Of a DNA stretch of 64,000 nt, positions 24,509-64,000 are shown one piece after another. The position numbers and the translations under genes are program-made. Source of the stretch: Patescibacteria group bacterium (GTDB lineage: Bacteria; Patescibacteriota; Patescibacteriia; Patescibacteriales; UBA12465); the NCBI GenBank assembly GCA_041651355.1, contig JBAZJK010000001.1, forward strand, positions 293,883 to 357,882. The letters are read 5' to 3'. The stretch's first letter is position 1; each line of letters starts with the position of its first letter. The notes under the pieces were generated by a model. That model saw only the letters and a list, made by a program, of their open reading frames with translations, was not told the DNA's origin and did not search any database.

Positions 24509-24579
24509 TCGGGGATCGTCTAATGGTAGGACAGCAGGTTCTGGCCCTGCTAATCGGGGTTCAAATCCCTGTCCCCGAG
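24509..24579 (+). tRNA. tRNA-Gln (anticodon CTG)
   Basis: Folded by hand. Acceptor TCGGGGA/TCCCCGA (U1:A72 as in bacterial tRNA-Gln). D arm GTCT-AATGGTA-GGAC. Anticodon arm GCAGG-TTCTGGC-CCTGC. T arm CGGGG-TTCAAAT-CCCTG. Discriminator G. CCA not encoded. Confidence 0.85.
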
Positions 24580-24719
24580 CACCTATATAAAAACGAGCAG
24601 AAATGCCCGTTTTTATTATGTTTAATTAGTTCGAAAATAACATCACATTTTTTTATCTTTAGCAAATGCTCTGATTTTATTGACTTAAAAAAGTTCGAAT
24701 CCCTTTGCCTATTTTTTAT

Positions 24720-24764
24720 TTGACAGCCGTTTTGTTAAAAAGTATCATATCAATATAAATTGAT
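24720..24764 (+). promoter_or_regulatory. Promoter plus candidate ArsR operator
   Basis: TTGACA (24720-24725), 17-nt spacer, TATCAT (24743-24748). Immediately followed by the inverted repeat ATCAAT-ATAA-ATTGAT (24749-24764), 11 nt before the arsR start. Confidence 0.55.
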
Positions 24765-24775
24765 TATATAAATTT

Positions 24776-25090
24776 ATGAAAGCAAAATGTTGTACGAATA
24801 AAAAGCTAACCGAGGAATTTTCTAACCTCGCTAAGTTTCTACGGATTATCAGTGACGATAATCGTTTAAGAATTTTATGCTTACTCAAAAATGGGGAACG
24901 CTGTGTTTGCGAAATATATCCTAACCTTGATTTATCTCAAAATCTTGTTTCTAGTCATTTAAAAGTTATGCTTGATTTTGGCTTGCTTAAAATTAGACAA
25001 GAATGGAAGAAAAACTATTACTCTATTAATCCAATAATATTTAAAAAATATAATTTATCATTAACCAATTTCTTTAAAAACTATGAATAA
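24776..25090 (+). CDS. arsR: ArsR/SmtB-family transcriptional repressor
   Basis: 104 aa. Winged HTH. LSDDNRLRILCLL and CVCEI metal-site motif. Confidence 0.8.
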   Translation: MKAKCCTNKKLTEEFSNLAKFLRIISDDNRLRILCLLKNGERCVCEIYPNLDLSQNLVSSHLKVMLDFGLLKIRQEWKKNYYSINPIIFKKYNLSLTNFFKNYE

Positions 25091-25388
25091 GCAAATTACC
25101 TCGATTCAAGTTTTGGGCTCCGGTTGCCCAACTTGTAAAAAACTATTTGAATTAACTCAAAAAGCAGTTGTTGAATTAGAGTTAAAAACAGAAGTTGAAT
25201 ATATTACCGATATTCAAAAGATTATCGAGCTTGGTGTGATGTCATCTCCGGTTTTAACAATTAACGGTAAAGTGGCCTTAGTCGGCCAATTACCCGGTCT
25301 AGAAAAGATAAAAGAATTGCTTGCTTTAAACAGCCAACCAAAGATAGAAGAATCTATTAGTAGTTGTTCTTGTGGTGGTAAGTGCTAA
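25083..25388 (+). CDS. Thioredoxin-fold redox-active disulfide protein (small, CxxC)
   Basis: 101 aa. VLGSGCPTCKKL CxxC near the N-terminus. C-terminal CSCGGKC. Confidence 0.75.
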   Translation: MNKQITSIQVLGSGCPTCKKLFELTQKAVVELELKTEVEYITDIQKIIELGVMSSPVLTINGKVALVGQLPGLEKIKELLALNSQPKIEESISSCSCGGKC

Positions 25389-25396
25389 ATAAAAAT

Positions 25397-26377
25397 ATGG
25401 ACATTTTTTACCCTATACAATGGTTGGCGGATTTAGTAAGTTACAATTTATTAGGATTAGTTAAAGATTCTTATTTAGCTAATGCTGTTAATTTTTTTAT
25501 TTACGACACGATAAAAATTGGGCTTTTATTGTTAGTTATAAACTTGGTAATGGCAGCTGTAAATTATTATTTTCCCATGGAAAGGGCTAGGGATATTTTG
25601 ACTAAGAAGCGTTGGTTGGGTATGAATTATCTAATAGCGGCTTTACTTGGTATAGTCACCCCGTTTTGTTCTTGTTCTTCTATCCCGCTATTTATTGGCT
25701 TTATGGCTGCTAGAATACCGCTAGGCGTGACCTTTGCCTTTTTAATTAGCTCACCACTTATTAATGAATCTTCATTATATTTATTTCCAGCGATGTTCGG
25801 CATGAAAGTAACTATTCTTTATAATTTATTTGGGTTAGCGATTGCGGTTTTAGGCGGAATGCTTATACAAAAATTAAAATTAGAAAAATACGTAAAGCCC
25901 GAATTTTTGAATATTAAGTCACGAGCTAAAATGGAGACGACTATTAACGGGGATAAGCCTAAATTTAAAAAACTTCTCAAAGATTTTTGGCTAGATGGTT
26001 TTGCTTTAACTAAAAAAATATATCCTTACGTAATCTTAGGTGTTGGCGTTGGAGCTATTATTCATGGTTTTATTCCTAGTGATATAATTGGGCAATATTT
26101 GTCAGCCAAATCACTATGGACAGTTCCATTAGCAGTTATTTTTGCCGTTCCTCTGTATGCTAATTCTGTAACTGTTTTGCCAATAATGGAAGCCTTGGTT
26201 GGTAAGGGTGCCCCCCTAGGTACCGTTTTAGCTTTTATGACGGCAATCGTTACCTTGTCGCTGCCAGAGGCGATAATAATAAAAAAAGTGATGCGTTGGC
26301 CGCTTTTATTAATCTTTTTCGGTATCACAACGATTGGAATTATAATAATGGGTTATCTATTTAATATAATTTTATAA
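25397..26377 (+). CDS. COG0701-type permease, ArsP-like (PFCSCS motif)
   Basis: Polytopic. TPFCSCSSIPLF motif characteristic of this permease family. The ATG at 25397 is preferred over the GTG at 25382. Confidence 0.7.
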   Translation: MDIFYPIQWLADLVSYNLLGLVKDSYLANAVNFFIYDTIKIGLLLLVINLVMAAVNYYFPMERARDILTKKRWLGMNYLIAALLGIVTPFCSCSSIPLFIGFMAARIPLGVTFAFLISSPLINESSLYLFPAMFGMKVTILYNLFGLAIAVLGGMLIQKLKLEKYVKPEFLNIKSRAKMETTINGDKPKFKKLLKDFWLDGFALTKKIYPYVILGVGVGAIIHGFIPSDIIGQYLSAKSLWTVPLAVIFAVPLYANSVTVLPIMEALVGKGAPLGTVLAFMTAIVTLSLPEAIIIKKVMRWPLLLIFFGITTIGIIIMGYLFNIIL

Positions 26378-26386
26378 AATTAAATT

Positions 26387-26857
26387 ATGAAGAAAAATAT
26401 ATTTCTCTTTATTACTTTAGGGGCGCTCATCTTAACCCTAACAGGCTGTTCTGGCGATCAAAAAATAACCTATTTTAACGAAGATGGTAGTTCCAAAACT
26501 GTAGCAGTAAAAGACATTGTTAAGCCTGATAAAATAGAGGTGTATCTCTTTCATGCTACTCAGCGTTGCGCTACCTGTATTGCCATTGGCCGCCTAGCCG
26601 GCGAAACTGTTAACGAATATTTTCAGCCGGAATTACGAGACGGAAAAATAGAATTTAGAGAAATAAATATTGATCTGCCGGAAAACAAAGAATTAGCCGA
26701 AAAGTTTGGAGCCACCGGCTCAGCCCTGTATACAAATGTTATTGTTAAAGGGCAAGATGCTATTGCGCAGGATGTTAAGGTGTGGCGCTTAACTACAAAT
26801 GAAGAGGCTTTCAAGAGCTATTTAAAAGATAAACTTAATACCCAGTTAGGAAAATAA
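26387..26857 (+). CDS. Lipoprotein with thioredoxin-like CxxC domain (resembles the family annotated as ArsF-like)
   Basis: Lipobox LTLTGCSG. HATQRCATCIAIG CxxC. The family name is recalled from memory and not verified. Confidence 0.5.
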   Translation: MKKNIFLFITLGALILTLTGCSGDQKITYFNEDGSSKTVAVKDIVKPDKIEVYLFHATQRCATCIAIGRLAGETVNEYFQPELRDGKIEFREINIDLPENKELAEKFGATGSALYTNVIVKGQDAIAQDVKVWRLTTNEEAFKSYLKDKLNTQLGK

Positions 26858-26858
26858 T

Positions 26859-27593
26859 ATGGAAATTATAAATAGCCTAATAGATAATTATAATATACCA
26901 TTGCTTTCCGCCTTTCTTTTGGGAATATTAACTTCAATTAGCCCGTGCCCCTTAGCTACTAACATCACGGCGGTTGCCTTTATTTCCAAAGATTTTAAAA
27001 ATCCCGAACGCTCACTTTGGAATGGCTTGTATTATACTTTGGGACGAGCTTTAAGTTATATAATCATCGCCGCCTTAATTTATTTTGGCTTTTCAACTTT
27101 TAAAATAGCCGGAATTTTTCAAGGTTGGGGCGATAAAGTCTTGGGATTGGTAATGATTATTATCGGCCTGTTAATGTTTGGGTTTATAAAAATCAATCTC
27201 AATTTTAAAAGTGAGAAAATAGAAAAAGCTAAAGTTTGGCTGGCTAGACAGGGCTACCTTGGATCATTTCTATTGGGCATGCTCTTTGCATTAGCATTTT
27301 GTCCATATAGCGGTGCTTTATTTTTTGGGGCAGTTATTCCATTAATCATACATTCTCATTCCGGACTACTATTAAGCCCGATATTTGGCTTAGGAACTGG
27401 GTTGCCTGTTGTTATTTTTGCTTTTTTATTAGCTTATAGCACTCAAAAGATTGGCAAGACATTCTCTGTTATACAGAAAATTGAGAAAGTAATGCGGTAT
27501 TTAGTGGCAACTATTTTTATTTTAGTTGGTATATATTATTCTCAATTTTTGTTGTCATATCTTGTCAGTTTTTTTCAACAAATTGGCAAATAA
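26859..27593 (+). CDS. DsbD/CcdA-like transmembrane protein (resembles the family annotated as ArsG-type efflux permease)
   Basis: 244 aa, six TM segments. SISPCPLATN and FCPYSG Cys-Pro motifs, one in each half. Confidence 0.55.
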   Translation: MEIINSLIDNYNIPLLSAFLLGILTSISPCPLATNITAVAFISKDFKNPERSLWNGLYYTLGRALSYIIIAALIYFGFSTFKIAGIFQGWGDKVLGLVMIIIGLLMFGFIKINLNFKSEKIEKAKVWLARQGYLGSFLLGMLFALAFCPYSGALFFGAVIPLIIHSHSGLLLSPIFGLGTGLPVVIFAFLLAYSTQKIGKTFSVIQKIEKVMRYLVATIFILVGIYYSQFLLSYLVSFFQQIGK

Positions 27594-27635
27594 AGTCCGA
27601 AAGCAGTCCCTCCAAGCGAGTAATCATATATAAAA

Positions 27636-27666
27636 ATAGGCTAATTTGTGTCTATTTTTGTTTTTA
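27636..27666 (+). terminator. Terminator after the ars-like cluster
   Basis: ATAGGC / GTCTAT stem (one G-T pair), 8-nt loop, T run. Confidence 0.5.
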
Positions 27667-27669
27667 ATA

Positions 27670-27698
27670 TTGACAAATTATTAATTATATTACATAAT
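27670..27698 (+). promoter_or_regulatory. Sigma70-like promoter
   Basis: TTGACA, 17-nt spacer, CATAAT. Lies 28 nt upstream of the GTG at 27726. Confidence 0.55.
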
Positions 27699-27725
27699 TA
27701 TTGCAGAATTTTAAAACCCTAGACC

Positions 27726-28301
27726 GTGAAAATTAAAAATGTTATTTTTTTCGGCTTATTATGGGGAGTAATTTATTTCGGAACCAACAATATAATGCTG
27801 TTCACCGCCCGTGAGTTTCCATTATTTCCATTTGAAAGTAAGATTTCGATGAATGAATATTGGATGATTCCTTACGTTTCTTGGATCATTTATATTGTCG
27901 CTTTTTGTTTATCCATTAAAAAAGAGGCAAGAAAATTTATTTTGTTGGCAACACTTTTAGTGGTTATTCATGCTTTGATATTTATTTTTTACCCAGTTGA
28001 GTTTCCTAGGCATTACGATTTCAATTCGCTTTGCGCGGTAAACAAATTCTTATTAAGTTGCGATAACCCGCGGAATTGCTTTCCCAGCTTGCACGTATCT
28101 TTAATTTTCCTAACATTATTATCCGCTCGATTGCTTGGTATATCAAAAATAATGCGCTACCTCTTTGCGATTTGGGGTGCAGTTATCATGATTTCCGTAA
28201 TCTTTGTGAAACAGCATTACTTGATTGATGTACTGGTCGGAATAATAATGACTACCATTTATTTTTATTTATTTAAAAATAGATTTCGAGAGAGCTTTTA
28301 A
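27726..28301 (+). CDS. PAP2-superfamily membrane phosphatase/transferase (PAP2_C-like)
   Basis: 191 aa, polytopic. FPSLHV and KQHYLIDVLVG motifs. Confidence 0.55.
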   Translation: MKIKNVIFFGLLWGVIYFGTNNIMLFTAREFPLFPFESKISMNEYWMIPYVSWIIYIVAFCLSIKKEARKFILLATLLVVIHALIFIFYPVEFPRHYDFNSLCAVNKFLLSCDNPRNCFPSLHVSLIFLTLLSARLLGISKIMRYLFAIWGAVIMISVIFVKQHYLIDVLVGIIMTTIYFYLFKNRFRESF

Positions 28302-28322
28302 TTGTTGGAGCTCTCTTTTTTA
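28290..28322 (+). terminator. Terminator overlapping the PAP2 gene stop
   Basis: GAGAGCT / AGCTCTC stem, 12-nt loop containing the stop codon, T6 run. Confidence 0.6.
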
Positions 28323-28331
28323 AAATAAAAC

Positions 28332-28400
28332 AGTTCTAATTATATCCCAATTCCTGAGTGAGTAGACAAAATACCGCTTTTCGTGGTATTTTTTGTATAT
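28332..28400 (+). repeat. Intergenic hairpin-promoter module, copy A
   Basis: AGTTCTAAT...TAGACAAAATACCGCTTTTCGTGGTATTTTTTGTATAT. Hairpin ATACCGC-TTTTC-GTGGTAT. Sits directly upstream of the ATG at 28399. Confidence 0.8.
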
Positions 28401-28866
28401 GAATAATTTTTTGGAAAAAATTTTACACATCTTAAGCAAATTAAACATCGCGCCAGTTATATATGGATCTTTTGGCGCATCTCTTTATCTTGGCAATTTC
28501 AAAGAATTTGGAGACATCGATATACTCATCGAGGATAATTATATCTCTAATGACTGGGAAGAGTTTAAGAAAACACTTGAAGTAGACGGCTTTACCTTAA
28601 TTAATGAAAAGGAACATGAATTTGCATTTAACGGTAAGCAAGTCGGATTTGCTGGGAAAAGTATATTAATCAGGGATGGGATAATTAAAGATTATAAAGA
28701 GCTGGTCCGATATAAAGATAAGAATGCCCATACCTTAACCCCAGCCGATTTTTTAAGGGCTTACGAGTTCAGCTTCAAAGATGGATATCGTGTTAATAAT
28801 CGAGCCAAAAACGATCATGACATTATCCTAAAGTTGAAAGATTACATAGCGGCCAATGGTAAGTAG
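28399..28866 (+). CDS. Minimal nucleotidyltransferase-fold protein (antibiotic-NTase-like)
   Basis: YGSFGASLYLGNFKEFGDIDILI, i.e. the GS...DxD NTase signature. 155 aa from the ATG at 28399. Confidence 0.6.
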   Translation: MNNFLEKILHILSKLNIAPVIYGSFGASLYLGNFKEFGDIDILIEDNYISNDWEEFKKTLEVDGFTLINEKEHEFAFNGKQVGFAGKSILIRDGIIKDYKELVRYKDKNAHTLTPADFLRAYEFSFKDGYRVNNRAKNDHDIILKLKDYIAANGK

Positions 28867-28925
28867 TTCCAATTGCATACTAAGCTCTGAGCAGTTTAAA
28901 ATAGCCCTATTTTAGTAGGTATAAT
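28865..28925 (+). repeat. Intergenic module, diverged copy B
   Basis: Begins (T)AGTTCCAAT overlapping the stop codon, as in copy C. Ends in TTTAAA...CCTA-TTTTAG-TAGG hairpin...TATAAT. Confidence 0.55.
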
Positions 28926-28979
28926 TGAAGTTTAAGGTAAATAGTGCCAATATTAAAATAAATAAATCAAAATATAATT

Positions 28980-29612
28980 ATGACCATTTGGGATAATATT
29001 TATAAAAAATATAAAAAGGATGGGCAAGAATACGCTACTTTACAGCCAGGTTTAATTCCGGAGTTTTTAAATTTTATTCAGAAACGGGATTTTAAGATAA
29101 AACAAGTTTTGGATATCGGCTGTGGTAATGGGAAATATTTAATTTTTTTAAAAAGTTTAGGCTTTAAGACCGATGGGATTGATTCTAGCCCGACCGCAGT
29201 GGAAATGACTAAAGAGATTTTAAAAGATGACTCAAATATATTATTAGCTGATATATATAAATATGATTTGCCTAAAGAGCAATATGATCTGGTAATTTCC
29301 ATAGCTGCTATTCATCATGGTTTGAAAGCACAGGTCAATCGAGCCATAAAACAGATTTATCCGGCTCTTTTGCCAGGAGGAAGTTTTTTTGTTACCTTAC
29401 CAGATAATGAAGGCAGTTCACATTGGACTAGCATGGTCGAACATAAGGAAATAGAACCAGGGGTCAGAGCGCCTCTGCATGGCCCCGAGGCAGGTTTGCC
29501 CCACAGCTCTTTTACTAAGGAAGAGATAAAAGAAATGTTTTCTGATTTTGCTAAGGTTGATATGCAACTCTTGGCTGATAGAGGTAGATGGATTATAACT
29601 GGTACAAAATAG
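28980..29612 (+). CDS. Class I SAM-dependent methyltransferase
   Basis: VLDIGCGNGKY motif I. 210 aa. Confidence 0.8.
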   Translation: MTIWDNIYKKYKKDGQEYATLQPGLIPEFLNFIQKRDFKIKQVLDIGCGNGKYLIFLKSLGFKTDGIDSSPTAVEMTKEILKDDSNILLADIYKYDLPKEQYDLVISIAAIHHGLKAQVNRAIKQIYPALLPGGSFFVTLPDNEGSSHWTSMVEHKEIEPGVRAPLHGPEAGLPHSSFTKEEIKEMFSDFAKVDMQLLADRGRWIITGTK

Positions 29613-29682
29613 TTCCAATCTTCTCCCAAACTCCGAACTAGATAGACAAAATACCACTTCTTGTGGTATTTTTGTTATATAT
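29611..29682 (+). repeat. Intergenic hairpin-promoter module, copy C
   Basis: AGTTCCAAT...TAGACAAAATACCACTTCTTGTGGTATTTTTGTTATATA. Perfect hairpin ATACCAC-TTCTT-GTGGTAT. Confidence 0.8.
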
Positions 29683-29697
29683 TTAAAATATAAACTT

Positions 29698-30090
29698 ATG
29701 AATAAAGTTACACACTTTGAATTTCCCTGGGATGATAAGGACAGAGCCAAATCTTTTTATCAAAATGTTTTTGGCTGGAAGCCTTTCGAATGGGAACAAT
29801 TTTCTTATACTAGTTGGCAGACCGGTCCAGTCGATGAAAAGATGCAGCCCACTGAGTTTGGATTTATCAATGGTGGTTCCAGTAAGCGCGATCCGCAGAT
29901 GCCTTATCCAATGTTTTACGTCGATGTGGAGGATATTGACGCGACCCTTGAAAAAATTATCGCTCAGGGAGGCGCGATCGTGAGAGGGAAGACCCCTCTT
30001 GGAGAAAATGGCAGCATGGGTTTCTTGGCTTGGTTTAAAGATTCCGAAGGTAATATTCTAGGTTTGTCCCAATATAAACAATCGGCCTGA
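29698..30090 (+). CDS. VOC-family protein (glyoxalase / bleomycin-resistance fold)
   Basis: 130 aa. VTHFEFPWDDKDRAKSFYQNVFGW N-terminus and FKDSEGNILGL C-terminal motif. Confidence 0.7.
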   Translation: MNKVTHFEFPWDDKDRAKSFYQNVFGWKPFEWEQFSYTSWQTGPVDEKMQPTEFGFINGGSSKRDPQMPYPMFYVDVEDIDATLEKIIAQGGAIVRGKTPLGENGSMGFLAWFKDSEGNILGLSQYKQSA

Positions 30091-30094
30091 TGTT

Positions 30095-30718
30095 ATGAGA
30101 CAAGAGATTATAAAAGAAATAATCGATAATAAATTATTATATATTTCTCCGGATATAGATGAAAAAGATTGGGTGCTGCTAAAAAATAATAGTCGCACGC
30201 CAATTTTTTTAGATACATCAAAATTTATTTCTTTTCCTGAATTATTATATAAGGTAAATCTTTTAGTGATTGATATTATCAAAGATAATTCAATCATTTT
30301 TGATAAAATATTGGGTATCCCTTATGGAGGATTGCCATTTAGTTATGGCGTCACCAATATATTGAAAGCGCCTGGCCTAACAATCAGGAAAGAAGGTTAT
30401 AAAGATTATAGTACTAAAGGGGAGTTGTTGGGTAATTACCAACAAGGGGATAAGGTCCTGATTATTGAAGATGCTACCGTGACAGCTAATACCGTCATGG
30501 GCTTTGTAAACAAATTAAAAGCCAATGCCCTAGAAATCAATGACGTGATTACGATTTTAGATATCGAAAAATCAGCCCAAGCTAACCTAGCTAAGTTAGG
30601 AGTGAATTTGCAGGCCTTATTTACCTGGAAAGAGCTATATGAAAGCTACAAAAAAGAGTATCCTGGTGTTATCACTAGGGATATGGAACTTTTCTTAGAT
30701 GCATTTGTGAGCAATTAG
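30095..30718 (+). CDS. Type I phosphoribosyltransferase (orotate PRTase-like)
   Basis: PRPP-binding loop KVLIIEDATVTANT. 207 aa. Confidence 0.65.
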   Translation: MRQEIIKEIIDNKLLYISPDIDEKDWVLLKNNSRTPIFLDTSKFISFPELLYKVNLLVIDIIKDNSIIFDKILGIPYGGLPFSYGVTNILKAPGLTIRKEGYKDYSTKGELLGNYQQGDKVLIIEDATVTANTVMGFVNKLKANALEINDVITILDIEKSAQANLAKLGVNLQALFTWKELYESYKKEYPGVITRDMELFLDAFVSN

Positions 30719-30756
30719 TTTGGGATACGTATATTTAAAATCAATAATCAAACGAT

Positions 30757-31377
30757 ATGAAATTTTATCTTTCTTCATACAAGCTCGGAGACAGGGTTGG
30801 AGAATTAACCCAGCTTATTAATGGCCTCCCTAAGAGGGCAGTCTATATTCCTAATGCTTTGGATTTTGCTTCCGACCTGGAGAGACGGCAGAAGAGCGAG
30901 GACGGGGATCTGAGCGAATTATCTGTTCTGGGTCTTGGTATCGAACGGGTCGACCTCCGTGATTATTTCGGTAAAAAAGACGAGCTTAAGGAGAAGCTGT
31001 CTGCCTGTGGCCTTATTTATGTCCGGGGCGGTAATGTTTTTGTTCTCAGACAAGCCATGAAACTGAGCGGTTTTGATGACATCTTGAAAGAAATCAGCTC
31101 CCGGAACGATTTAGTTTACGGCGGCTATAGCGCCGGCGCTTGCGTGTTAGCTCCTTCTTTGCGTGGCGCCGAATTAGTTGATGACATAAGTGTTTTTCCC
31201 TATGAAGCTAATGACAGGGTTATTTGGGAAGGTCTTGGTCTTATAAGCTATGCCATCTTGCCTCATTTTCGCTCCGATCATCCAGAATCAGCGGCTATGG
31301 AGAAGGTCTTAGAATTTTATATTTCTTCGAAAATCCCCTTCGTAGCCCTAAAAGATGGAGAGGTTTTAATCTTTTGA
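30757..31377 (+). CDS. Peptidase S51 family (dipeptidase E-like)
   Basis: YVRGGNVFVL and GGYSAGACVLAP nucleophile-elbow motifs. Confidence 0.7.
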   Translation: MKFYLSSYKLGDRVGELTQLINGLPKRAVYIPNALDFASDLERRQKSEDGDLSELSVLGLGIERVDLRDYFGKKDELKEKLSACGLIYVRGGNVFVLRQAMKLSGFDDILKEISSRNDLVYGGYSAGACVLAPSLRGAELVDDISVFPYEANDRVIWEGLGLISYAILPHFRSDHPESAAMEKVLEFYISSKIPFVALKDGEVLIF

Positions 31378-31381
31378 TTAT

Positions 31382-31410
31382 TTGACTTCTTGCCTTTTAT
31401 ATGATATTAT
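31382..31410 (+). promoter_or_regulatory. Sigma70-like promoter for the helicase gene
   Basis: TTGACT, 17-nt spacer, TATTAT. Confidence 0.55.
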
Positions 31411-58527: not shown

Positions 58528-58602
58528 TCCCGGGTAGCGCAGCGGTAGCGCAGTTGGCTGTTAACCAATTGGTCGTCGGTTCGAATCCGACCCCGGGAGC
58601 CA
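58528..58602 (+). tRNA. tRNA-Asn (anticodon GTT), CCA encoded
   Basis: Hand fold. TCCCGGG / CCCGGGA acceptor. GCGC-AGCGGTA-GCGC D arm. GTTGG-CTGTTAA-CCAAT anticodon arm. GTCGG-TTCGAAT-CCGAC T arm. G73. CCA. Confidence 0.9.
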
Positions 58603-60195
58603 ACGTAGATTAAGCGAGGTTAAAGCCTCGCTTTTTCTTTTATTTTCGCCAAAATATGTCGGTTCGAACCTAGCGATTTCAGCGTTAAATTTTTCAACGT
58701 TATTTCTGAGTGGAATAAGCCAATTATGATAAGAAATGCTAATGTTTTTGCCAATTATTCTTTGGTTCGAACCTAACTTCTTAATGATGTTATTTCGTGT
58801 TTCTTTGTCTCCTTTATCAAACTCCTTTCGAGCTTGAGCACAGAAAATAAAATTTTCTTTGGTAAGCTCTATTAGTTCTGCCTTGCTTGGTTTTGTTTTA
58901 ATTTCATTTTGGCTTAAAGCTTCAATCTCAGCTTTTAATTTAGTCCGTTCGACTAAATAATCAGCATCATCAAGCATCTTTTTCATTCTCATGCTATTAA
59001 GCTCAGATAACTGATCTTCTAAATCTTTAACCTTCTTTTCTCTATCCAGTTTAACCGGCTTTTCTGTTTCAAATTCCTCTTTCATATTTTTCTCTAAATA
59101 ATCTAAGGCTAAGCTTAAAAACTGGGGATGCATTTCCAGTTTTTTAAGGTCGCTTTTAACTTGTTTTTCTAATTCTTCTTCTTGAATAGAACCTTCTCGA
59201 CAGCCAGTTTCTTTTCGTTTATGCGTACAATGGTAATAGTGATAAGTTTTAACTTCATTAGCTTCTAAAATATATTTTCTTTTGCGTTCAGCGGTAATAG
59301 CACAACCACAAAAACCACAGGTAAAAGCGCCAGAATACATAAAGTCTAACTTTTTAACATTTCTTTTATTACCCCTTAAGCCTAATAACTCTTGAATCCG
59401 ATTATAATCTTCAAGACTAATTATCGGCTTATGTTTGCCCGGGCTTTCTTTACCGTTATAAGTGATTATGCCGCAATAAAATGAGCTAGTTAACATTTTA
59501 TACCAGGTGCTTCTAGATAATGAATTGCCCCCAGTTTTAGCTTTTGCCCTAGTCTTATAACCCCAATCATTATTTAGCTTATTTAATACCTCTTGAGCAG
59601 TATAATTACCAGTTAAAAAGAGCTTAAAAGCCTCTTTAAGAAGCGGTGCACGCTTCTTGTCGGTAATTAGTGTCCGTTGACCTTTCTCGAGCCTCATATC
59701 GTTTAAATAGCCCTCAGGAGCTTGTCCTGGAAGCCAACCGAGAGAGACTTTCTTCTCTAAACCACGCTTTACATCCTTGCCTAATTTAGAAGAGAAATAT
59801 TGAGACTGACTGAGAGCTAATTGGAGCATCATTATGCCTTCCGGGGAATTATCAAAATTATATGATCCGAATTTTAAATCTTTAATAATCCCGGTACGGA
59901 CTAAATAGGTAATAGTTGAAGCATCTATTTCATTTCTTGATAATCTATCAGGATGCCAGGCAATAATGCCGTGCGCTTCACCTTTCCTTATTCTTTTTAT
60001 CATCTCAGCGAAAACCGGCCGATTGTATGGCGAAAAAGCGCTATGCTTTTCTTCCATAACTGCAACAATTTCTAAGCCGCTAAAAAACTCTTTAACTTTA
60101 TCCATTTGACTTTCAATGGATAAAGCCTGTCTTTCATCGCCTTCAGTTGATTTGCGGACATAGGCAAAATATTTAATTGGATTTTCGCTCGTCAT
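58561..60195 (-). CDS. Large serine recombinase (integrase)
   Basis: YFAYVRKSTEGDERQALSIESQ catalytic-Ser region. Recombinase domain (GWLPGQAPEGY). Zinc ribbon CGFCGCAI...YHCTHKRKETGC. Coiled coil. ATG at 60195 (the track uses a TTG at 60240). The last 14 codons are antisense to tRNA-Asn. Confidence 0.85.
   Translation of the reverse strand: MTSENPIKYFAYVRKSTEGDERQALSIESQMDKVKEFFSGLEIVAVMEEKHSAFSPYNRPVFAEMIKRIRKGEAHGIIAWHPDRLSRNEIDASTITYLVRTGIIKDLKFGSYNFDNSPEGIMMLQLALSQSQYFSSKLGKDVKRGLEKKVSLGWLPGQAPEGYLNDMRLEKGQRTLITDKKRAPLLKEAFKLFLTGNYTAQEVLNKLNNDWGYKTRAKAKTGGNSLSRSTWYKMLTSSFYCGIITYNGKESPGKHKPIISLEDYNRIQELLGLRGNKRNVKKLDFMYSGAFTCGFCGCAITAERKRKYILEANEVKTYHYYHCTHKRKETGCREGSIQEEELEKQVKSDLKKLEMHPQFLSLALDYLEKNMKEEFETEKPVKLDREKKVKDLEDQLSELNSMRMKKMLDDADYLVERTKLKAEIEALSQNEIKTKPSKAELIELTKENFIFCAQARKEFDKGDKETRNNIIKKLGSNQRIIGKNISISYHNWLIPLRNNVEKFNAEIARFEPTYFGENKRKSEALTSLNLRWLPGSDSNRRPIG
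58612..58640 (+). terminator. Terminator after tRNA-Asn
   Basis: AAGCGAGG-TTAAAG-CCTCGCTT, then a T run. Confidence 0.75.
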
Positions 60196-60231
60196 ATATG
60201 TATTTTTAGATAACAAAAAGGGACGGTCCTG

Positions 60232-60337
60232 AGCATCCAACTAAATATTGCCAAAAGCAATACTCGTCAGCAGAACCATCCCTTTTTGGGGGCGAGTATA
60301 AAAAAAGCTTTTGGGCTGTGTTATTTAGTTGGATGCT
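60232..60337. repeat. Nested inverted-repeat structure upstream of the recombinase gene
   Basis: 16-bp perfect inverted repeat AGCATCCAACTAAATA / TATTTAGTTGGATGCT (60232-60247, 60322-60337). It encloses the inner repeat CGAGTAT / ATACTCG and the small hairpins TTGC-CAAAA-GCAA and CCC-TTTTTGG-GGG. Confidence 0.7.
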
Positions 60338-60356
60338 ACTTATATATTACTACATT

Positions 60357-60542
60357 TTAAATTTTTTTCAAGTTTCTATAATATTGATTGTGCTGCGATT
60401 TTGTCATCGGCTTATAAGTCTGTTCCACTAGCCATAATAAATCAGCTGCCTGTTTGTAGGCCTCTTCGTCGCTTATTTCGATTTTAAAGATCTTCTGATA
60501 AAGCTTCTTGAATTCCTTCATGAAGCTGGGCGTAATTTCCAT
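60357..60542 (-). CDS. Small hypothetical protein (61 aa)
   Basis: MEITPSFMKEFKKLYQKIF... from the ATG at 60542. The track start at 60620 overlaps the Rep 3' end. Confidence 0.45.
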   Translation of the reverse strand: MEITPSFMKEFKKLYQKIFKIEISDEEAYKQAADLLWLVEQTYKPMTKSQHNQYYRNLKKI

Positions 60543-60580
60543 ACTAGAACGGGAACTATGTTTATTTTTCAAAGGTAAAG

Positions 60581-61345
60581 TTAGAAACCGTATAAACGAT
60601 ATTGAATTTTTCCTAACCAATCAGAACGGTATGATTTTTCAAATAACGGCGGAATATTGCCAATAGCATTTGTGATAAATTCTTTTACTTCTTTAAAGAC
60701 GGTAATAATAATTGGTTGCTCAAGGTTTTTTGAGGCTAATATTTTTCTCATTCCAAAATAGCGAATATCAAACAAATTTTTACTGACATATTTTGAAACG
60801 TAAAGCCCTAAATGATTAACGTGTTTAATTCTATTTATTTTTATAAATCCATTTTGCCAAATAGCTTTTAATTCATCAGAAGCCATTTCAAAATTAACTA
60901 ATAAATGATAATGAACGGCTCCGCCATTTGGTTTTGGTCTACCATAGTAATCGTTATCAGATTGAAATTCAGGAATAGCGATATATTTTAAATTTGGCCT
61001 TTTTCTCTTTAGTCTTTTAATAAACTTCTTAAATATCGGATTAGCTTCAACTAGACTGGGAACATCAGAATCAAAGGTTAGGGTGATAAATACTTTTAAA
61101 TCAGGATTAGCGTTTATTAAACGCACAATTCTTGATCTAGTCCGGCGCAAGGAAAAATCTCTCATTACCTCAACTTGAAAAGCCTTGTTAGCGCACTCTT
61201 TAATCTGCTTCATTATTTCTTCTTTTGTGCGACGTTTGGCGGCTTTTTTCTTCCTCTTCTTTTGGCCAACATGAATAGGCGTCTCGTATTGATAGAGCTC
61301 CACTTTCTTCCCGGATATTATTAACTTGTTCTGATAGGTGGTCAT
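60581..61345 (-). CDS. HUH rolling-circle replication initiator (phage/plasmid Rep, two-Tyr type)
   Basis: Motif 1 FITLTF, motif 2 HYHLLV (HUH), motif 3 YVSKYVSK (YxxKY). ATG at 61345. An alternative TTG lies at 61375. Confidence 0.8.
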   Translation of the reverse strand: MTTYQNKLIISGKKVELYQYETPIHVGQKKRKKKAAKRRTKEEIMKQIKECANKAFQVEVMRDFSLRRTRSRIVRLINANPDLKVFITLTFDSDVPSLVEANPIFKKFIKRLKRKRPNLKYIAIPEFQSDNDYYGRPKPNGGAVHYHLLVNFEMASDELKAIWQNGFIKINRIKHVNHLGLYVSKYVSKNLFDIRYFGMRKILASKNLEQPIIITVFKEVKEFITNAIGNIPPLFEKSYRSDWLGKIQYRLYGF

Positions 61346-61541
61346 CTTTGAGGAGGAAATACAATTCTTCAACAACAGAAGTGTATTCTTCTTGATATGA
61401 GTTAAGTTTTCGAACTAAAAGCTCGAAATCGGTGGTTGAATCGGTTTTTATTCTTCTAGTAATTCCAAATCTTAAAGTTTTAATTCTTTCTCGAAGCCAA
61501 ATAATGTAATCAAATTCTCTTTTAATGTTTTTATATATCAT
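61200..61541 (-). CDS. Hypothetical 113-aa ORF overlapping the Rep 5' end in another frame
   Basis: The N-terminal ~70 aa look protein-like (MIYKNIKREFDYIIWLRERIKTLRF...). The C-terminal part overlaps Rep by about 146 nt. Confidence 0.35.
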   Translation of the reverse strand: MIYKNIKREFDYIIWLRERIKTLRFGITRRIKTDSTTDFELLVRKLNSYQEEYTSVVEELYFLLKDDHLSEQVNNIREESGALSIRDAYSCWPKEEEEKSRQTSHKRRNNEAD

Positions 61542-61564
61542 ATATTTATCAAATATTCGTAGTG

Positions 61565-61866
61565 ACGGCCCGGTGTGTGCGTATGGTCAAGTTAATTATA
61601 TTAGGGAGGGGGCCGGGCCTCATTTCTAGTCTTAAGTCTCATTTACCGGCTGCGGTTTTTCTTTTTTGGCTCCCCCAAGGGGATGCCGCCAAAAAAGAAA
61701 AAAACTGCAGCAGCCGGTCGTAGTTTTAAATTTTAAAGGGAGTTGATTGTCTATCTGTGGCTTCTCATTTTAACGTCAGCTTATCGCCTATCAAGGTAGT
61801 AGCAAGTCTCCACTTTGACTGTCGCAAGCAATCAGACGTTGTCTCATTTCGTGCCGATAGATAATC
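61565..61866. other. Origin-like ORF-free region: long hairpins, four CTCATTT repeats, flanking inverted repeat
   Basis: GGCCCGG / CCGGGCC (61567-61573 / 61613-61619). 74-nt imperfect hairpin at 61645-61718 (about 31 bp, apical TCCCC-CAA-GGGGA). CTCATTT at 61619, 61638, 61764, 61844. GATTGTCTATC / GATAGATAATC (61745-61755 / 61856-61866). Confidence 0.6.
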
Positions 61867-61916
61867 TAAGGCGACGTTATCCGGCAATTTAAAAATCAGT
61901 CGCTACATTTAATTTT

Positions 61917-62210
61917 ATGACTATATCAGTCAAATCAAATTGGACAGGTTCAGAGAGCACCTCTGATCTTGTTAGAAAACAGATTGCCGAGAGATGGGGC
62001 GAAGATGAAGCTAAACGTTATAATCCGTTTGTTAATTGCTTCACTTTTAAAGGTTGGCTTAAGAACGGTTATGTCGTCCGTAAGGATGAAAAAGCTATTC
62101 GGTCTTTCATTATCGTTGAAAAGAAAGACAAGAAAACCGGAGCGGTAGTTGAAAGACGACCGAAAACGATTTACCTTTTCTACGAGAAACAGGTTGAAGC
62201 GCAAGCTTAA
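61917..62210 (+). CDS. Small basic protein, possible ssDNA-binding (ArdC-N / DUF1738-like motif)
   Basis: 97 aa. FTFKGWLKNGYVVRKDEKA resembles the ArdC N-terminal ssDNA-binding motif, from memory. The only plus-strand gene in the element. Confidence 0.4.
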   Translation: MTISVKSNWTGSESTSDLVRKQIAERWGEDEAKRYNPFVNCFTFKGWLKNGYVVRKDEKAIRSFIIVEKKDKKTGAVVERRPKTIYLFYEKQVEAQA

Positions 62211-62218
62211 TAAATTTA

Positions 62219-62251
62219 GGAGTTAATCCTTCGGGATTGACTCCTTTTTTT
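62219..62251. terminator. Strong bidirectional terminator
   Basis: 11-bp stem GGAGTTAATCC-TTCG-GGATTGACTCC, then a T7 run. Confidence 0.8.
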
Positions 62252-62270
62252 GTATAGACAATTTAAAGAA

Positions 62271-63122
62271 CTATCTTACAGTTAATTCTTTTTGTTTCAA
62301 GAATTCTCCTTCACTTAATGCACCTCTATAACCACCTTTATTTTCTCGTCCGCAATCAGAACAAATGCTAACAGGTTTCCAATAATGTTTTTTAGGTCGT
62401 AGCTTAATGTCATAACAACTGTCGTAAATTCCCGTTGGCTTAATAATTAAAACTTGCTTACATTTTGGACAATTATTTAAATTGAAGTCATGCCTTTCGT
62501 GGCACTTCTCACAAAATTTATGCTCAAGCTCTAATTTATATTCATTCCATTTAGTAAAAAGCAGTTTTGATTTAAGAAAAAATCTAAGCTCTGATAACCA
62601 AGAAAAAAAACCATTATCTTTTGGCTCCGGTTCTTCTTTTAGCATTTGGGTTCTATCAATAGAGCGTTCCCGGAAAATAATAACTCCTGGAATAAAGGTT
62701 AGGATGCGAAAACAATCAGTCCATTCATCGATAACAATACGAGCGCTTTTGGCGACTAACGTAATATTTTGGGTCGTGCCATAAACATCAACGTGGTGGT
62801 GGCGATGTTGTTGAAAAAATCTTCTGATAGCACCGCTTTCGTTTTCCCAGTTTCTAGGATCGAGCGGCTCGGCTATTTCATCGCAAACTACAATACAATT
62901 TCTGACATCAACAATGTCTTCCATTTCTTGGTAATAATGAAGATTATTTTTATCAGTATCCCATTCACCTAAAACATCAAAGCGTTTCCAGTTAAGCCAT
63001 AAGTTAGAATATACTTGATAACCGGCGACAAGATAAGGATAAACAAAGGTCGCCATTATTAATGATTTACCGCTGCCAGGAAGCCCGGTAATTAATTTGA
63101 ATTTTGAACCATCTAAAGCCAT
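62271..63122 (-). CDS. Zot/pI-like P-loop morphogenesis ATPase with C-terminal zinc-ribbon motifs
   Basis: Walker A ITGLPGSGKS, Walker B IVVCDEIAE. C-terminal CEKCHERHDFNLNNCPKC and CSDCG. No hydrophobic TM segment seen. Confidence 0.7.
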   Translation of the reverse strand: MALDGSKFKLITGLPGSGKSLIMATFVYPYLVAGYQVYSNLWLNWKRFDVLGEWDTDKNNLHYYQEMEDIVDVRNCIVVCDEIAEPLDPRNWENESGAIRRFFQQHRHHHVDVYGTTQNITLVAKSARIVIDEWTDCFRILTFIPGVIIFRERSIDRTQMLKEEPEPKDNGFFSWLSELRFFLKSKLLFTKWNEYKLELEHKFCEKCHERHDFNLNNCPKCKQVLIIKPTGIYDSCYDIKLRPKKHYWKPVSICSDCGRENKGGYRGALSEGEFLKQKELTVR

Positions 63123-63126
63123 ATTA

Positions 63127-63402
63127 TTATTCTCTTAAACCGGAATTATTAATTAATATCTTAATGGCCATAATTGACCACAAGAAAGGATAAACAGAAA
63201 ATATTAAACCAACTATTTGCCAGAGCGTATCAGTCGGAAAAATAAAATCAATGAGACTCGACCATTGTCTAATCATTCCGAAGAATATCGTAATGTTAGA
63301 CCAGGGAATTAAGCTATTAACCGCTTGGCCAATAGCGTAAAGCAATCCTGATAAAAATGTTGTGATAAGAATTACTTTAATGAATTGAATTATTGCGTTC
63401 AT
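63127..63402 (-). CDS. Small 3-TM membrane protein (minor virion/assembly protein candidate)
   Basis: 91 aa, strongly hydrophobic. Lies 4 nt upstream of the Zot-like gene start on the same strand. Confidence 0.55.
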   Translation of the reverse strand: MNAIIQFIKVILITTFLSGLLYAIGQAVNSLIPWSNITIFFGMIRQWSSLIDFIFPTDTLWQIVGLIFSVYPFLWSIMAIKILINNSGLRE

Positions 63403-63406
63403 ATAT

Positions 63407-64000
63407 TTATTGGCCGCCGGTCATTTTTTCAATGAAGGCTTTACCGTTTTTAATTGCCCATAAACCAAACAATCCCCACAGAGCCCATTTAATAATTGTT
63501 TTAATGGCTAAAAATAATTGATTGGTTTTTTGAGCATTAACTGTTCCTAATGTCGAGCTAGAAGTGAAAATATCTTTACCCCATAAGACAATGGTGGCGG
63601 TTGAGGTTCCGGTGGTTGGAATTTGAGCAGTTAAATTACCATCTACCGGCGAAAGAAAAGAAAGCTCGGTCATTACTGTCGCATTAGCACTCGCTTTCCA
63701 GGAATCATTTAAATTAGTGTATATATTAAAAGGGAAAACATTTTTTAAGATATTTCCGGCTTTATAAATTCCGTCAGTTGCTAGTGTGGTAAATTTATTA
63801 CCAGCGATAATAAAGCCCAATTTAAATTTGCAACCGATAACTGTTAGATTAAGAGCGGGGACATCAACACCAAATATCTCCGGTGGTGGTGTATTCCAAT
63901 CATCTTCGCTGCAAGCGGCGTCATACATCACGTCATCGTCATAAAAGGGATTACTTGAACTAGCCGCTAATATATCGGCTACGGTCGGAATTTGAGTCGG
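63407..64000 (-). CDS. Structural/adsorption protein candidate with C-terminal membrane anchor; 5' end outside the window
   Basis: The frame stays open from 63931 up to position 64000 (checked codon by codon). C-terminal anchor WALWGLFGLWAI followed by a basic tail. Confidence 0.5.
   Translation of the reverse strand, partial: PTQIPTVADILAASSSNPFYDDDVMYDAACSEDDWNTPPPEIFGVDVPALNLTVIGCKFKLGFIIAGNKFTTLATDGIYKAGNILKNVFPFNIYTNLNDSWKASANATVMTELSFLSPVDGNLTAQIPTTGTSTATIVLWGKDIFTSSSTLGTVNAQKTNQLFLAIKTIIKWALWGLFGLWAIKNGKAFIEKMTGGQ

Follow-up and report, generated by a model that had tools for sequence, protein, structure and literature searches.

What is the AT-rich block that closes the Patescibacteria stretch analysed here (64,000 nucleotides, referred to below as the window), and by what route did it come to lie directly against a tRNA-Asn(GTT) gene? 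The initial annotation had read it as the left part of an integrated filamentous-phage-like element carrying a serine integrase, and had placed the coat gene and the second junction beyond position 64000. Our analysis bears this out in every respect open to a test: a prophage of about 8.9 kb, apparently intact and of the filamentous single-stranded DNA (ssDNA) type (inovirus, Tubulavirales), very probably occupies this site in a Patescibacteria chromosome, and the window ends with its first 5.4 kb, counted from the tRNA. The part beyond the window was read in the source contig (L001; ENA ERZ27247363 k141_956022, 372 kb), which was retrieved through an exact-protein look-up of the Zot protein and in which a coordinate equals 73123 minus the window coordinate; other contigs and loci used for comparison are likewise designated by L numbers. 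The border at the tRNA is where it had been annotated: ARAGORN finds the tRNA gene there, and the GC content, 0.42-0.46 in the 5 kb before it, is 0.33-0.39 after it, falling from about 0.45 to about 0.36 at the tRNA itself.

That the element is a filamentous phage is indicated by its morphogenesis module, which starts in the window and continues in L001. The ATPase that had been called Zot-like scores 40.2 bits with PF05707 (cutoff 20.3) and matches phrog_197 (2.5e-14) and phrog_1675, protein I of M13 (8e-7), in PHROG; its C-terminal part contains zinc-ribbon-like CxxC pairs. For the neighbouring 91-amino-acid (aa) protein, annotated as having three transmembrane segments, the hydropathy scan finds two strong hydrophobic blocks, the third segment being seen by eye only; by position it corresponds to M13 gpVI. 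The membrane-anchored open reading frame (ORF) cut by the window end belongs to a 605-aa protein, of which it is the C-terminal part; the whole protein has a signal peptide, weak similarity to Laminin_G_3 and a C-terminal transmembrane segment, and its gene reaches the equivalent of window position 65224. In L001, genes for 269-, 90-, 55-, 33-, 33-, 82-, 54-, 605- and 91-aa proteins lie upstream of Zot on the same strand, and their order matches the gV-gVII/IX-gVIII-gIII-gVI-gI order of M13. The 269-aa gene is followed by a terminator of its own, the 90-aa protein is soluble and occupies the gpV position, and each of the 55-, 33- and 33-aa proteins has a single transmembrane segment. The coat gene expected beyond 64000 is also present: the 82-aa protein combines an AHA/AADPD signal cleavage motif, an acidic N-terminus, a transmembrane segment at residues 45-74 and a basic KKIRGTIK tail, it matches phrog_1109 ('core encoded pilin', the CTXphi coat Cep) at 6e-5, and its gene has the only strong ribosome-binding site of the element (GGGGGTGA). 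A secretin gene was found neither in the window part of the prophage nor in its L001 extension.

The replication region agrees with the initial annotation as well, with one addition. The HUH Rep belongs to a recognised family (Table 1), and in alignment A4 its motifs FITLTF, VHYHLL (annotated as HYHLLV) and YVSKYVSK, which correspond to FxTLTF, VHYHxL and YxxKY, do not vary among eight relatives; in deposited phage genomes its best identity to a Rep is 34.5%, and nothing significant was found among PDB sequences. The addition is a small ORF in a different frame, overlapping the start of Rep: the N-terminal ~66 aa (MIYKNIKREFDYIIWLRERIK...) are conserved in L007, L010, L003 and L020, it has no gene call in L001, and from its conservation it is probably a real small gene. 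The ORF-free region described as full of hairpins lies within a segment (61346-61916) whose DNA fold is more stable than that of shuffled controls (z = -3.8), and its first ~345 nucleotides (nt) stay conserved in L008, where Rep identity is down to 39%; it is a candidate for the replication origin(s), the packaging signal and divergent promoters. The outer stems of its 74-nt hairpin vary among relatives yet stay complementary (CCGGCTGC/GCAGCCGG, CCGTCCG/CGGACGG, CCGCCCCCGA/TCGGGGCGG, CCAGCCGA/TCGGCTGG), while RNAalifold on a MAFFT alignment returns the inner stem only; this hairpin is a candidate packaging signal or minus-strand origin. The 97-aa basic protein (p97) has 114 homologue clusters in Patescibacteria, several of them named ArdC-like. 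Its AF2 model (pLDDT 85) has its best Foldseek/PDB matches in ArdC of R388, with a probability of 0.99-1.0 and weak structural scores (E 4e-3 to 1e-2, TM 0.40-0.49), so that an ArdC-N-like ssDNA-binding fold is predicted. Coating of ssDNA, protection of incoming ssDNA and regulation are candidate roles for it.

The integrase is a large serine recombinase, as had been annotated: it unites Resolvase (7e-17), Recombinase (2e-12) and Zn_ribbon_recom (1.6e-9) matches (PF00239, aa 25-165; PF07508, 196-286; PF13408, 302-366, in the numbering of the 559-aa ORF), matches the phrog_95 integrase profile at 6e-74, has a YVRKS motif near its N-terminus, and in a PDB sequence search matches the C-terminal domain of the A118 integrase at 8e-9. 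One correction concerns the end of its gene: the ORF overlaps the tRNA by 42 nt, with the TAA stop within the anticodon loop, and the last ~13-14 codons are an antisense reading through the tRNA, a by-product of the overlap between the phage attachment site (attP) and the int end. The 61-aa protein accompanies int in L026, L038, L046 and L055, where tblastn detects no other protein of the element.

The position of the junction follows from a comparison of tRNA ends. All five unoccupied ends, including that of the window tRNA-Gln at 24509-24580, read GAG-CA-N and do not encode CCA, whereas GAGC-CA-ACGTAGATTAAG is found at every occupied site of this lineage, be the tRNA Asn or Gln; the change from host to phage therefore falls within GAGC(C)A. 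On the phage side, the 24-mer GAGGCTTTAACCTCGCTTAATCTA, which contains the terminator hairpin, is identical in 35 metagenome contigs, and in ~28 of the 35 it is followed by CGTTGGCTC, after which comes an antisense tRNA-Asn, an antisense tRNA-Gln (TTG or CTG; ~20 loci) or tRNA-like arms. At the level of sequence, the large serine integrase has joined attP, which overlaps the final codons of int, to the very 3′ end of tRNA-Asn. The tRNA is left whole, and from the phage come the bases after GAGC: CA, to complete the encoded CCA end, then ACG, then a hairpin that can be read as the terminator of the tRNA. A search of L001 with the 3′ half of the tRNA found no tRNA-derived direct repeat of at least 14 nt, and no repeat common to both junctions exceeds a few bp.

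Comparison with complete siblings sets the extent of the prophage at window position 58601 to the equivalent of ~67520. Homology stops at the tRNA on one side and, on the other, at L001 5619 (L010, IMG/VR) or L001 5579 (L059, L061), so the second junction does lie beyond 64000, about 8.9 kb from the tRNA. Its 14-15 genes are all full length relative to siblings that are 89-96% identical (L007, L032, L054 and L059-L061, all from other samples), and p97 is the only gene on the other strand; a filamentous phage genome is expected to be ~5-12 kb and mostly on one strand. L059, L060 and L061 hold phages 89-91% identical at tRNA-Asn in a different host, IMG/VR contains six sibling contigs, classed as viral, and relative to L007 protein identity (93-96%) is higher than DNA identity (~88%). 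The comparison with relatives lacking the insert, which had been proposed as a check, is provided by L018, a host relative with the same neighbour genes, a flanking DUF4012 protein 86% identical and no phage: its order is L10-L12-760aa-201aa-DUF4012-tRNA-Asn, followed by isochorismatase and DUF5672 genes. The DUF4012 protein of our host flank has 100% identity to a protein listed in NCBI under 'Patescibacteria group bacterium' and ~60% identity to Ca. Falkowbacteria proteins; judged by this protein, the host is a member of the Patescibacteria, or Candidate Phyla Radiation (CPR), as had been supposed. In circular form the phage would read Rep, 61-aa, Int, attP, 269-aa, 90-aa (gpV position), 55/33/33-aa tip proteins, 82-aa coat, 54-aa, 605-aa adsorption, 91-aa membrane and Zot/pI genes, then the ArdC-like gene on the opposite strand, the intergenic origin/packaging region and Rep again.

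From what is known of the family, a life cycle can be proposed. Rep would start rolling-circle synthesis by nicking an origin within the conserved intergenic region, and the 90-aa and/or the 97-aa protein would coat the resulting ssDNA; the Zot ATPase and the small membrane proteins would then extrude it through a single membrane with addition of the 82-aa coat, a secretin being dispensable in an envelope without outer membrane. Excision would require Int together with a directionality factor, for which the 61-aa protein is a candidate, an accessory function being the other option.

Several observations weigh against this interpretation as a complete phage. Neither the 35 metagenome matches nor the exact-protein look-ups yielded a contig with the circular (attP) junction, and no empty site of the same species was found; integration is evident at the level of sequence, whereas the activity of the prophage we infer. 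The far-end crossover is bounded only to ~35 nt (L001 5580-5613). The Zot-like 283-aa protein lacks a predicted transmembrane segment, unlike M13 pI: in a hydropathy scan with a 19-residue window and a Kyte-Doolittle threshold of 1.6, no window of it reaches 1.6. Such a segment is typical of pI (M13) and does not define the Zot family. A tblastn search of 50,697 deposited phage genomes with the same protein gave no match. The 90-, 55-, 33-, 54-, 91- and 269-aa proteins have no family match in profile searches, including the 90-aa protein in the gpV position, and the roles we give them are suggested by size, position and hydropathy. Finally, the Rep-Int-p97 backbone also occurs with restriction/Abi cargo in Zot-less elements (L057, L058).

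The missing circular junction could mean that the prophage, although derived from an inovirus and correctly integrated, is cryptic or domesticated and no longer excises, replicates or makes particles. All 35 metagenome matches of the phage-side arm are integrated copies or remnants, the phage-side and far-end arms were each found in IMG/VR in the L010 contig only, and decayed copies are common at these tRNAs (L034, L047, L049; L039; L036). We nevertheless regard a cryptic state as unlikely, given that every gene is full length, that protein sequences are better conserved than DNA, as under purifying selection, and that near-identical phages reside in different hosts and at different tRNAs. Much less probable is that the block represents a non-viral integrative rolling-circle element of a plasmid or defence-island family, with Zot and membrane proteins that do not serve virion assembly. 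It would account for the Zot protein being matchless in deposited phage genomes, for an int-61aa module beside methylase-like genes in L046, and for L057 and L058, where the p97-intergenic-Rep-61aa-Int backbone accompanies type III restriction-modification, NYN, WYL and Abi genes; it has to contend with a complete inovirus gene order, a coat protein that shows every classic feature as well as a Cep profile match, a size of 8.9 kb that fits the inovirus range and the viral classification of the six IMG/VR siblings. That the serine recombinase is a mere passenger (e.g. a dimer resolvase) on an element inserted by host XerCD or a tyrosine integrase is scarcely credible, common as these routes are among inoviruses (PMC4471427) and even with a distant morphogenesis relative adjoining a tyrosine recombinase (L005), for the host-phage junction falls in the last int codons at more than 30 loci, the element has no tyrosine recombinase, the tRNA end has no long direct repeat, as expected for a serine integrase, and Int has full A118-type DNA-binding domains.

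Table 1. Features of the prophage and its target, in window coordinates unless stated otherwise
Feature	Position	Strand	Basis
Host tRNA-Asn(GTT), integration target, whole, intron-free	58528..58602	+	ARAGORN
tRNA-side junction GAGCCAACG: host to phage change within GAGC(C)A, at discriminator/CCA end	58597..58605		occupied versus unoccupied tRNA ends
Phage-supplied hairpin AAGCGAGG-TTAA-AGCCTCGCTT + T-run, inside int 3′ end	58612..58643	+	terminator scan
Large serine integrase, 544 aa as integrated	58561..60195	-	Pfam Resolvase/Recombinase/Zn_ribbon_recom; phrog_95
61-aa protein linked to int	60357..60542	-	co-occurrence with int
HUH rolling-circle Rep, 254 aa	60581..61345	-	PF23343 REP_ORF2-G2P 3e-15; phrog_3584 3e-18
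Small ORF, 113 aa, overlapping Rep start in another frame	61200..61541	-	protein-level conservation
Non-coding intergenic region, 375 bp, ORF-free	61542..61916		conservation; fold versus shuffled
74-nt imperfect hairpin in intergenic region	61645..61718	-	inverted repeats I1-I3
97-aa basic protein (p97), isoelectric point 9.6, opposite in direction to other genes	61917..62210	+	Pfam ArdcN 0.0024; AF2/Foldseek
Hairpin terminator between converging p97 and Zot genes	62218..62245		terminator scan: 12-bp stem + T-run
Zot/pI-family ATPase, 283 aa, Walker A GLPGSGKS, Walker B VVCDE	62271..63122	-	PF05707 3e-10
91-aa multi-transmembrane protein	63127..63402	-	hydropathy scan; 78-93% conserved in siblings
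C-terminal third and membrane anchor of 605-aa gpIII-like minor coat/adsorption protein	63407..64000	-	L001 7899-9716
82-aa major coat protein	L001 7442-7690 (outside window)	same strand as Zot	sequence features; phrog_1109

Within the far-end interval of the prophage, a crossover at CA (L001 5605-5606) is a candidate compatible with L001, L010, L039 and L059, and GC/GCTC at L001 5587-5590 is the alternative; depending on this choice, the free form of Int would end 8-19 codons past ...LNLR. The predicted circle junction is ...CGCTTAATCTACGT-TG-TCTCACTTCCAAATTTAATCTATAATAAGC..., or its GCTC variant, and the predicted empty site is GGTTCGAATCCGACCCCGGGAGC(CA)AGTTGATAGAAATCGAGC. The corresponding pattern TCCGACCCYGGGAGCCAN{3,33}GGAAGTG has no match in metagenome contigs, and its one match in genome contigs (L017) was set aside as a chance occurrence in GC-rich coding sequence. 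An 8-bp core TAGATTAA common to both junctions was rejected, because CCAACG, which separates it from the tRNA, goes with the phage across Asn and Gln sites and is absent from all five unoccupied tRNA ends. A crossover at AG was likewise discarded, the aligned position being AT in L059. The pseudo-tRNA arms (GCTC-N15-16-TTCnGAAC) that follow int in ~10 loci were considered as attP; they are more likely decayed copies of tRNA ends, since L023, L048 and L056 have a genuine tRNA-Gln 0.3-1.6 kb past them. Nor can L039 count as a separate case of the far-end junction, at a Gln site: it shares a homologous far flank with L059, an Asn-site locus, and is probably a deletion or a recombinant.

The target tRNAs show some peculiarities of their own. 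Three tandem copies of the 17-nt 3′ end of tRNA-Gln (GCTCGGGGACCAGGATT) are found in L056 (381-801, motif orientation), with a small hairpin before each of the two tRNA-proximal copies and the phage arm on the outermost; the tRNA end thus seems to be an insertion hot spot that is used repeatedly. The tRNA-Asn of some relatives (L010, L018, L020, L045) is interrupted in the anticodon loop by a group I intron (Rfam RF00028, 92 bits; L010 12722-12963, L018 11990-12540, L020 12020-12575), which has an HNH-type ORF of 143 aa in L018 and 108 aa in L020. Where the intron is present, the int ORF continues into it.

How widely can one such integrase be used? Over its first 531 residues, Int is 94.0% identical in L054 (Asn), 93.2% in L032 and L025 (Gln-TTG) and 84% in L010 (Asn); one integrase clade is therefore found at two tRNA identities. 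The Asn and Gln targets have GGTTCGAATCC and GAG in common and differ in the acceptor stem between. Other pairings vary further: at tRNA-Trp in L008 the structural genes are 93% identical, Int 65% and Rep 39%, and at tRNA-Asn in L020 Int is 27% identical. Judging from these values, phage modules are exchanged. Besides, L057 and L058 have proteins 94-97% identical to p97 at the head of their elements, followed by N6/N4 methylase, ResIII/RE_endonuc (type III restriction-modification), NYN, WYL and Abi_alpha or Fic genes; L058 also has Rep and, at the int position, a cut and unannotated ORF of 527 aa. The replication-integration backbone seems, from these sequences, to be common to elements with non-virion cargo.

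A tentative idea, on which we would not yet wager, is that the integrase clade reads a generic tRNA feature (T-arm GGTTCGAATCC plus the GAG-C(C)A acceptor end) and that the backbone is a chassis for either virion or defence cargo. If so, one filamentous phage would enter tRNA-Asn, tRNA-Gln (TTG/CTG) and decayed copies of tRNA ends across many Patescibacteria; the 3′ end of the tRNA would be rebuilt each time, including the CCA that unoccupied genes do not encode, together with a phage terminator; and the C-terminal tail of Int would differ between free and integrated forms.

Decayed copies are frequent at these tRNAs. In L039 (9245-11044) p269-p90 is fused to int residues 402-539, L034, L047 and L049 retain C-terminal int fragments alone, and in L036 (5700-5960) only the two element ends are left, ~25 nt apart. 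A distant morphogenesis block is carried by a Patescibacteria contig of the same sample (L005/L006 6459-10855), with a Zot 40% identical and 94/55/61/81/456/91-aa genes; it adjoins a tyrosine recombinase and has no recognisable Rep. In two sibling contigs (L009 1-636, L012 1-600) a LexA-like gene, of phage or host, lies directly upstream of the 269-aa homologue, both contigs being trimmed exactly at its start codon; it has LexA_DNA_bind and Peptidase_S24 domains in L012, and the call in L009 is by sequence similarity only.

Two neighbouring blocks are also AT-rich. Directly past the prophage, L001 1-5517 (the equivalent of window 67606-73122) belongs to a very AT-rich island (GC 0.25-0.34) that reaches at least to L001 position 1, with genes for an HNH protein (385 aa), a fused C5 and N6/N4 DNA methylase (611 aa) and a GmrSD_N-HNH protein (415 aa), which looks like a defence island. 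We regard it as a separate neighbour, because what follows the 269-aa gene directly in L059 and L060 is a set of housekeeping genes (HTH, glycosyltransferase, UDP-glucose dehydrogenase). Within the window, the block at 24509-31400 (GC 0.32-0.38) begins at the tRNA-Gln(CTG) already mentioned, whose end reads GAGC-ACC, with no encoded CCA and no phage arm; its genes include ArsR, a thioredoxin-like protein, an ArsP-type permease, DsbD_2, PAP2 and a methyltransferase among others, and an integrase is absent.

Few mobile elements of CPR/Patescibacteria have been described at the level of genes and junctions, and the present one provides a complete, comparably annotated filamentous prophage with a bounded attachment site and siblings in other hosts. 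In principle it does not change what is known of inoviruses. The survey of Roux et al. 2019 (PMC6813254) reported inovirus prophages from CPR genomes and listed serine recombinases with the integration genes of inoviruses, and phiRSM is a further serine-recombinase case (PMC4471427), so that ours is a well-supported new example, and the serine integrase, present as annotated, is a less unusual route than the initial annotation implied. The points of interest are rather the targeting of a tRNA end by a large serine integrase, a pI homologue without transmembrane segment, and a backbone shared with defence-cargo elements. The integrase is a candidate enzyme with an unusual target class, tRNA 3′ ends, and this class could interest those who engineer integrases or follow gene flow among CPR bacteria.

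Among known systems, Ff/M13 (Inoviridae) shares with this phage the order of gpV-position, tip-protein, gpVIII-like coat, gpIII-like, gpVI-like and pI/Zot genes and a genome size below 10 kb; both have an HUH Rep and, in a structured intergenic region, a long hairpin. In contrast to Ff/M13, it has no secretin (pIV), its pI homologue has zinc-ribbon-like motifs and no predicted transmembrane segment, it is temperate with an integrase of its own and an extra ArdC-like gene, and its Rep is nearer to microvirus-type Reps (24-35% identity). CTXphi is alike in its Zot-family ATPase, its Cep-like coat (phrog_1109) and its existence as an integrated filamentous prophage, but uses host XerCD at dif, encodes no integrase and infects a two-membrane host. 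As to p97, its profile and predicted fold match the N-terminal ssDNA-binding domain of ArdC of R388, whereas the C-terminal metalloprotease domain of ArdC is lacking. Similar in mode of insertion are phiRSM1/phiRSM3 of Ralstonia, inoviruses with a phage-encoded serine recombinase, insertion at the 3′ end of tRNA-Ser and an attP adjoining int (PMC4471427). Their Int, however, is of the small resolvase/invertase type with a 13-bp shared core, while here Int is a 544-aa large serine integrase with Recombinase and zinc-ribbon domains, no repeat above a few bp was found, and tRNA-Asn and tRNA-Gln are the targets; the att criterion of Roux et al. 2019 (direct repeats of at least 10 bp) would miss this junction (PMC6813254). 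The three-domain architecture is that of the A118/LI, Bxb1 and phiC31 integrases, and a short or absent shared core is probably a further common point. Most known large serine integrases disrupt protein-coding genes by inserting within them (PMC8092301), which makes the target found here less usual: the acceptor/T-arm end of tRNA genes of two identities, with the tRNA left whole.

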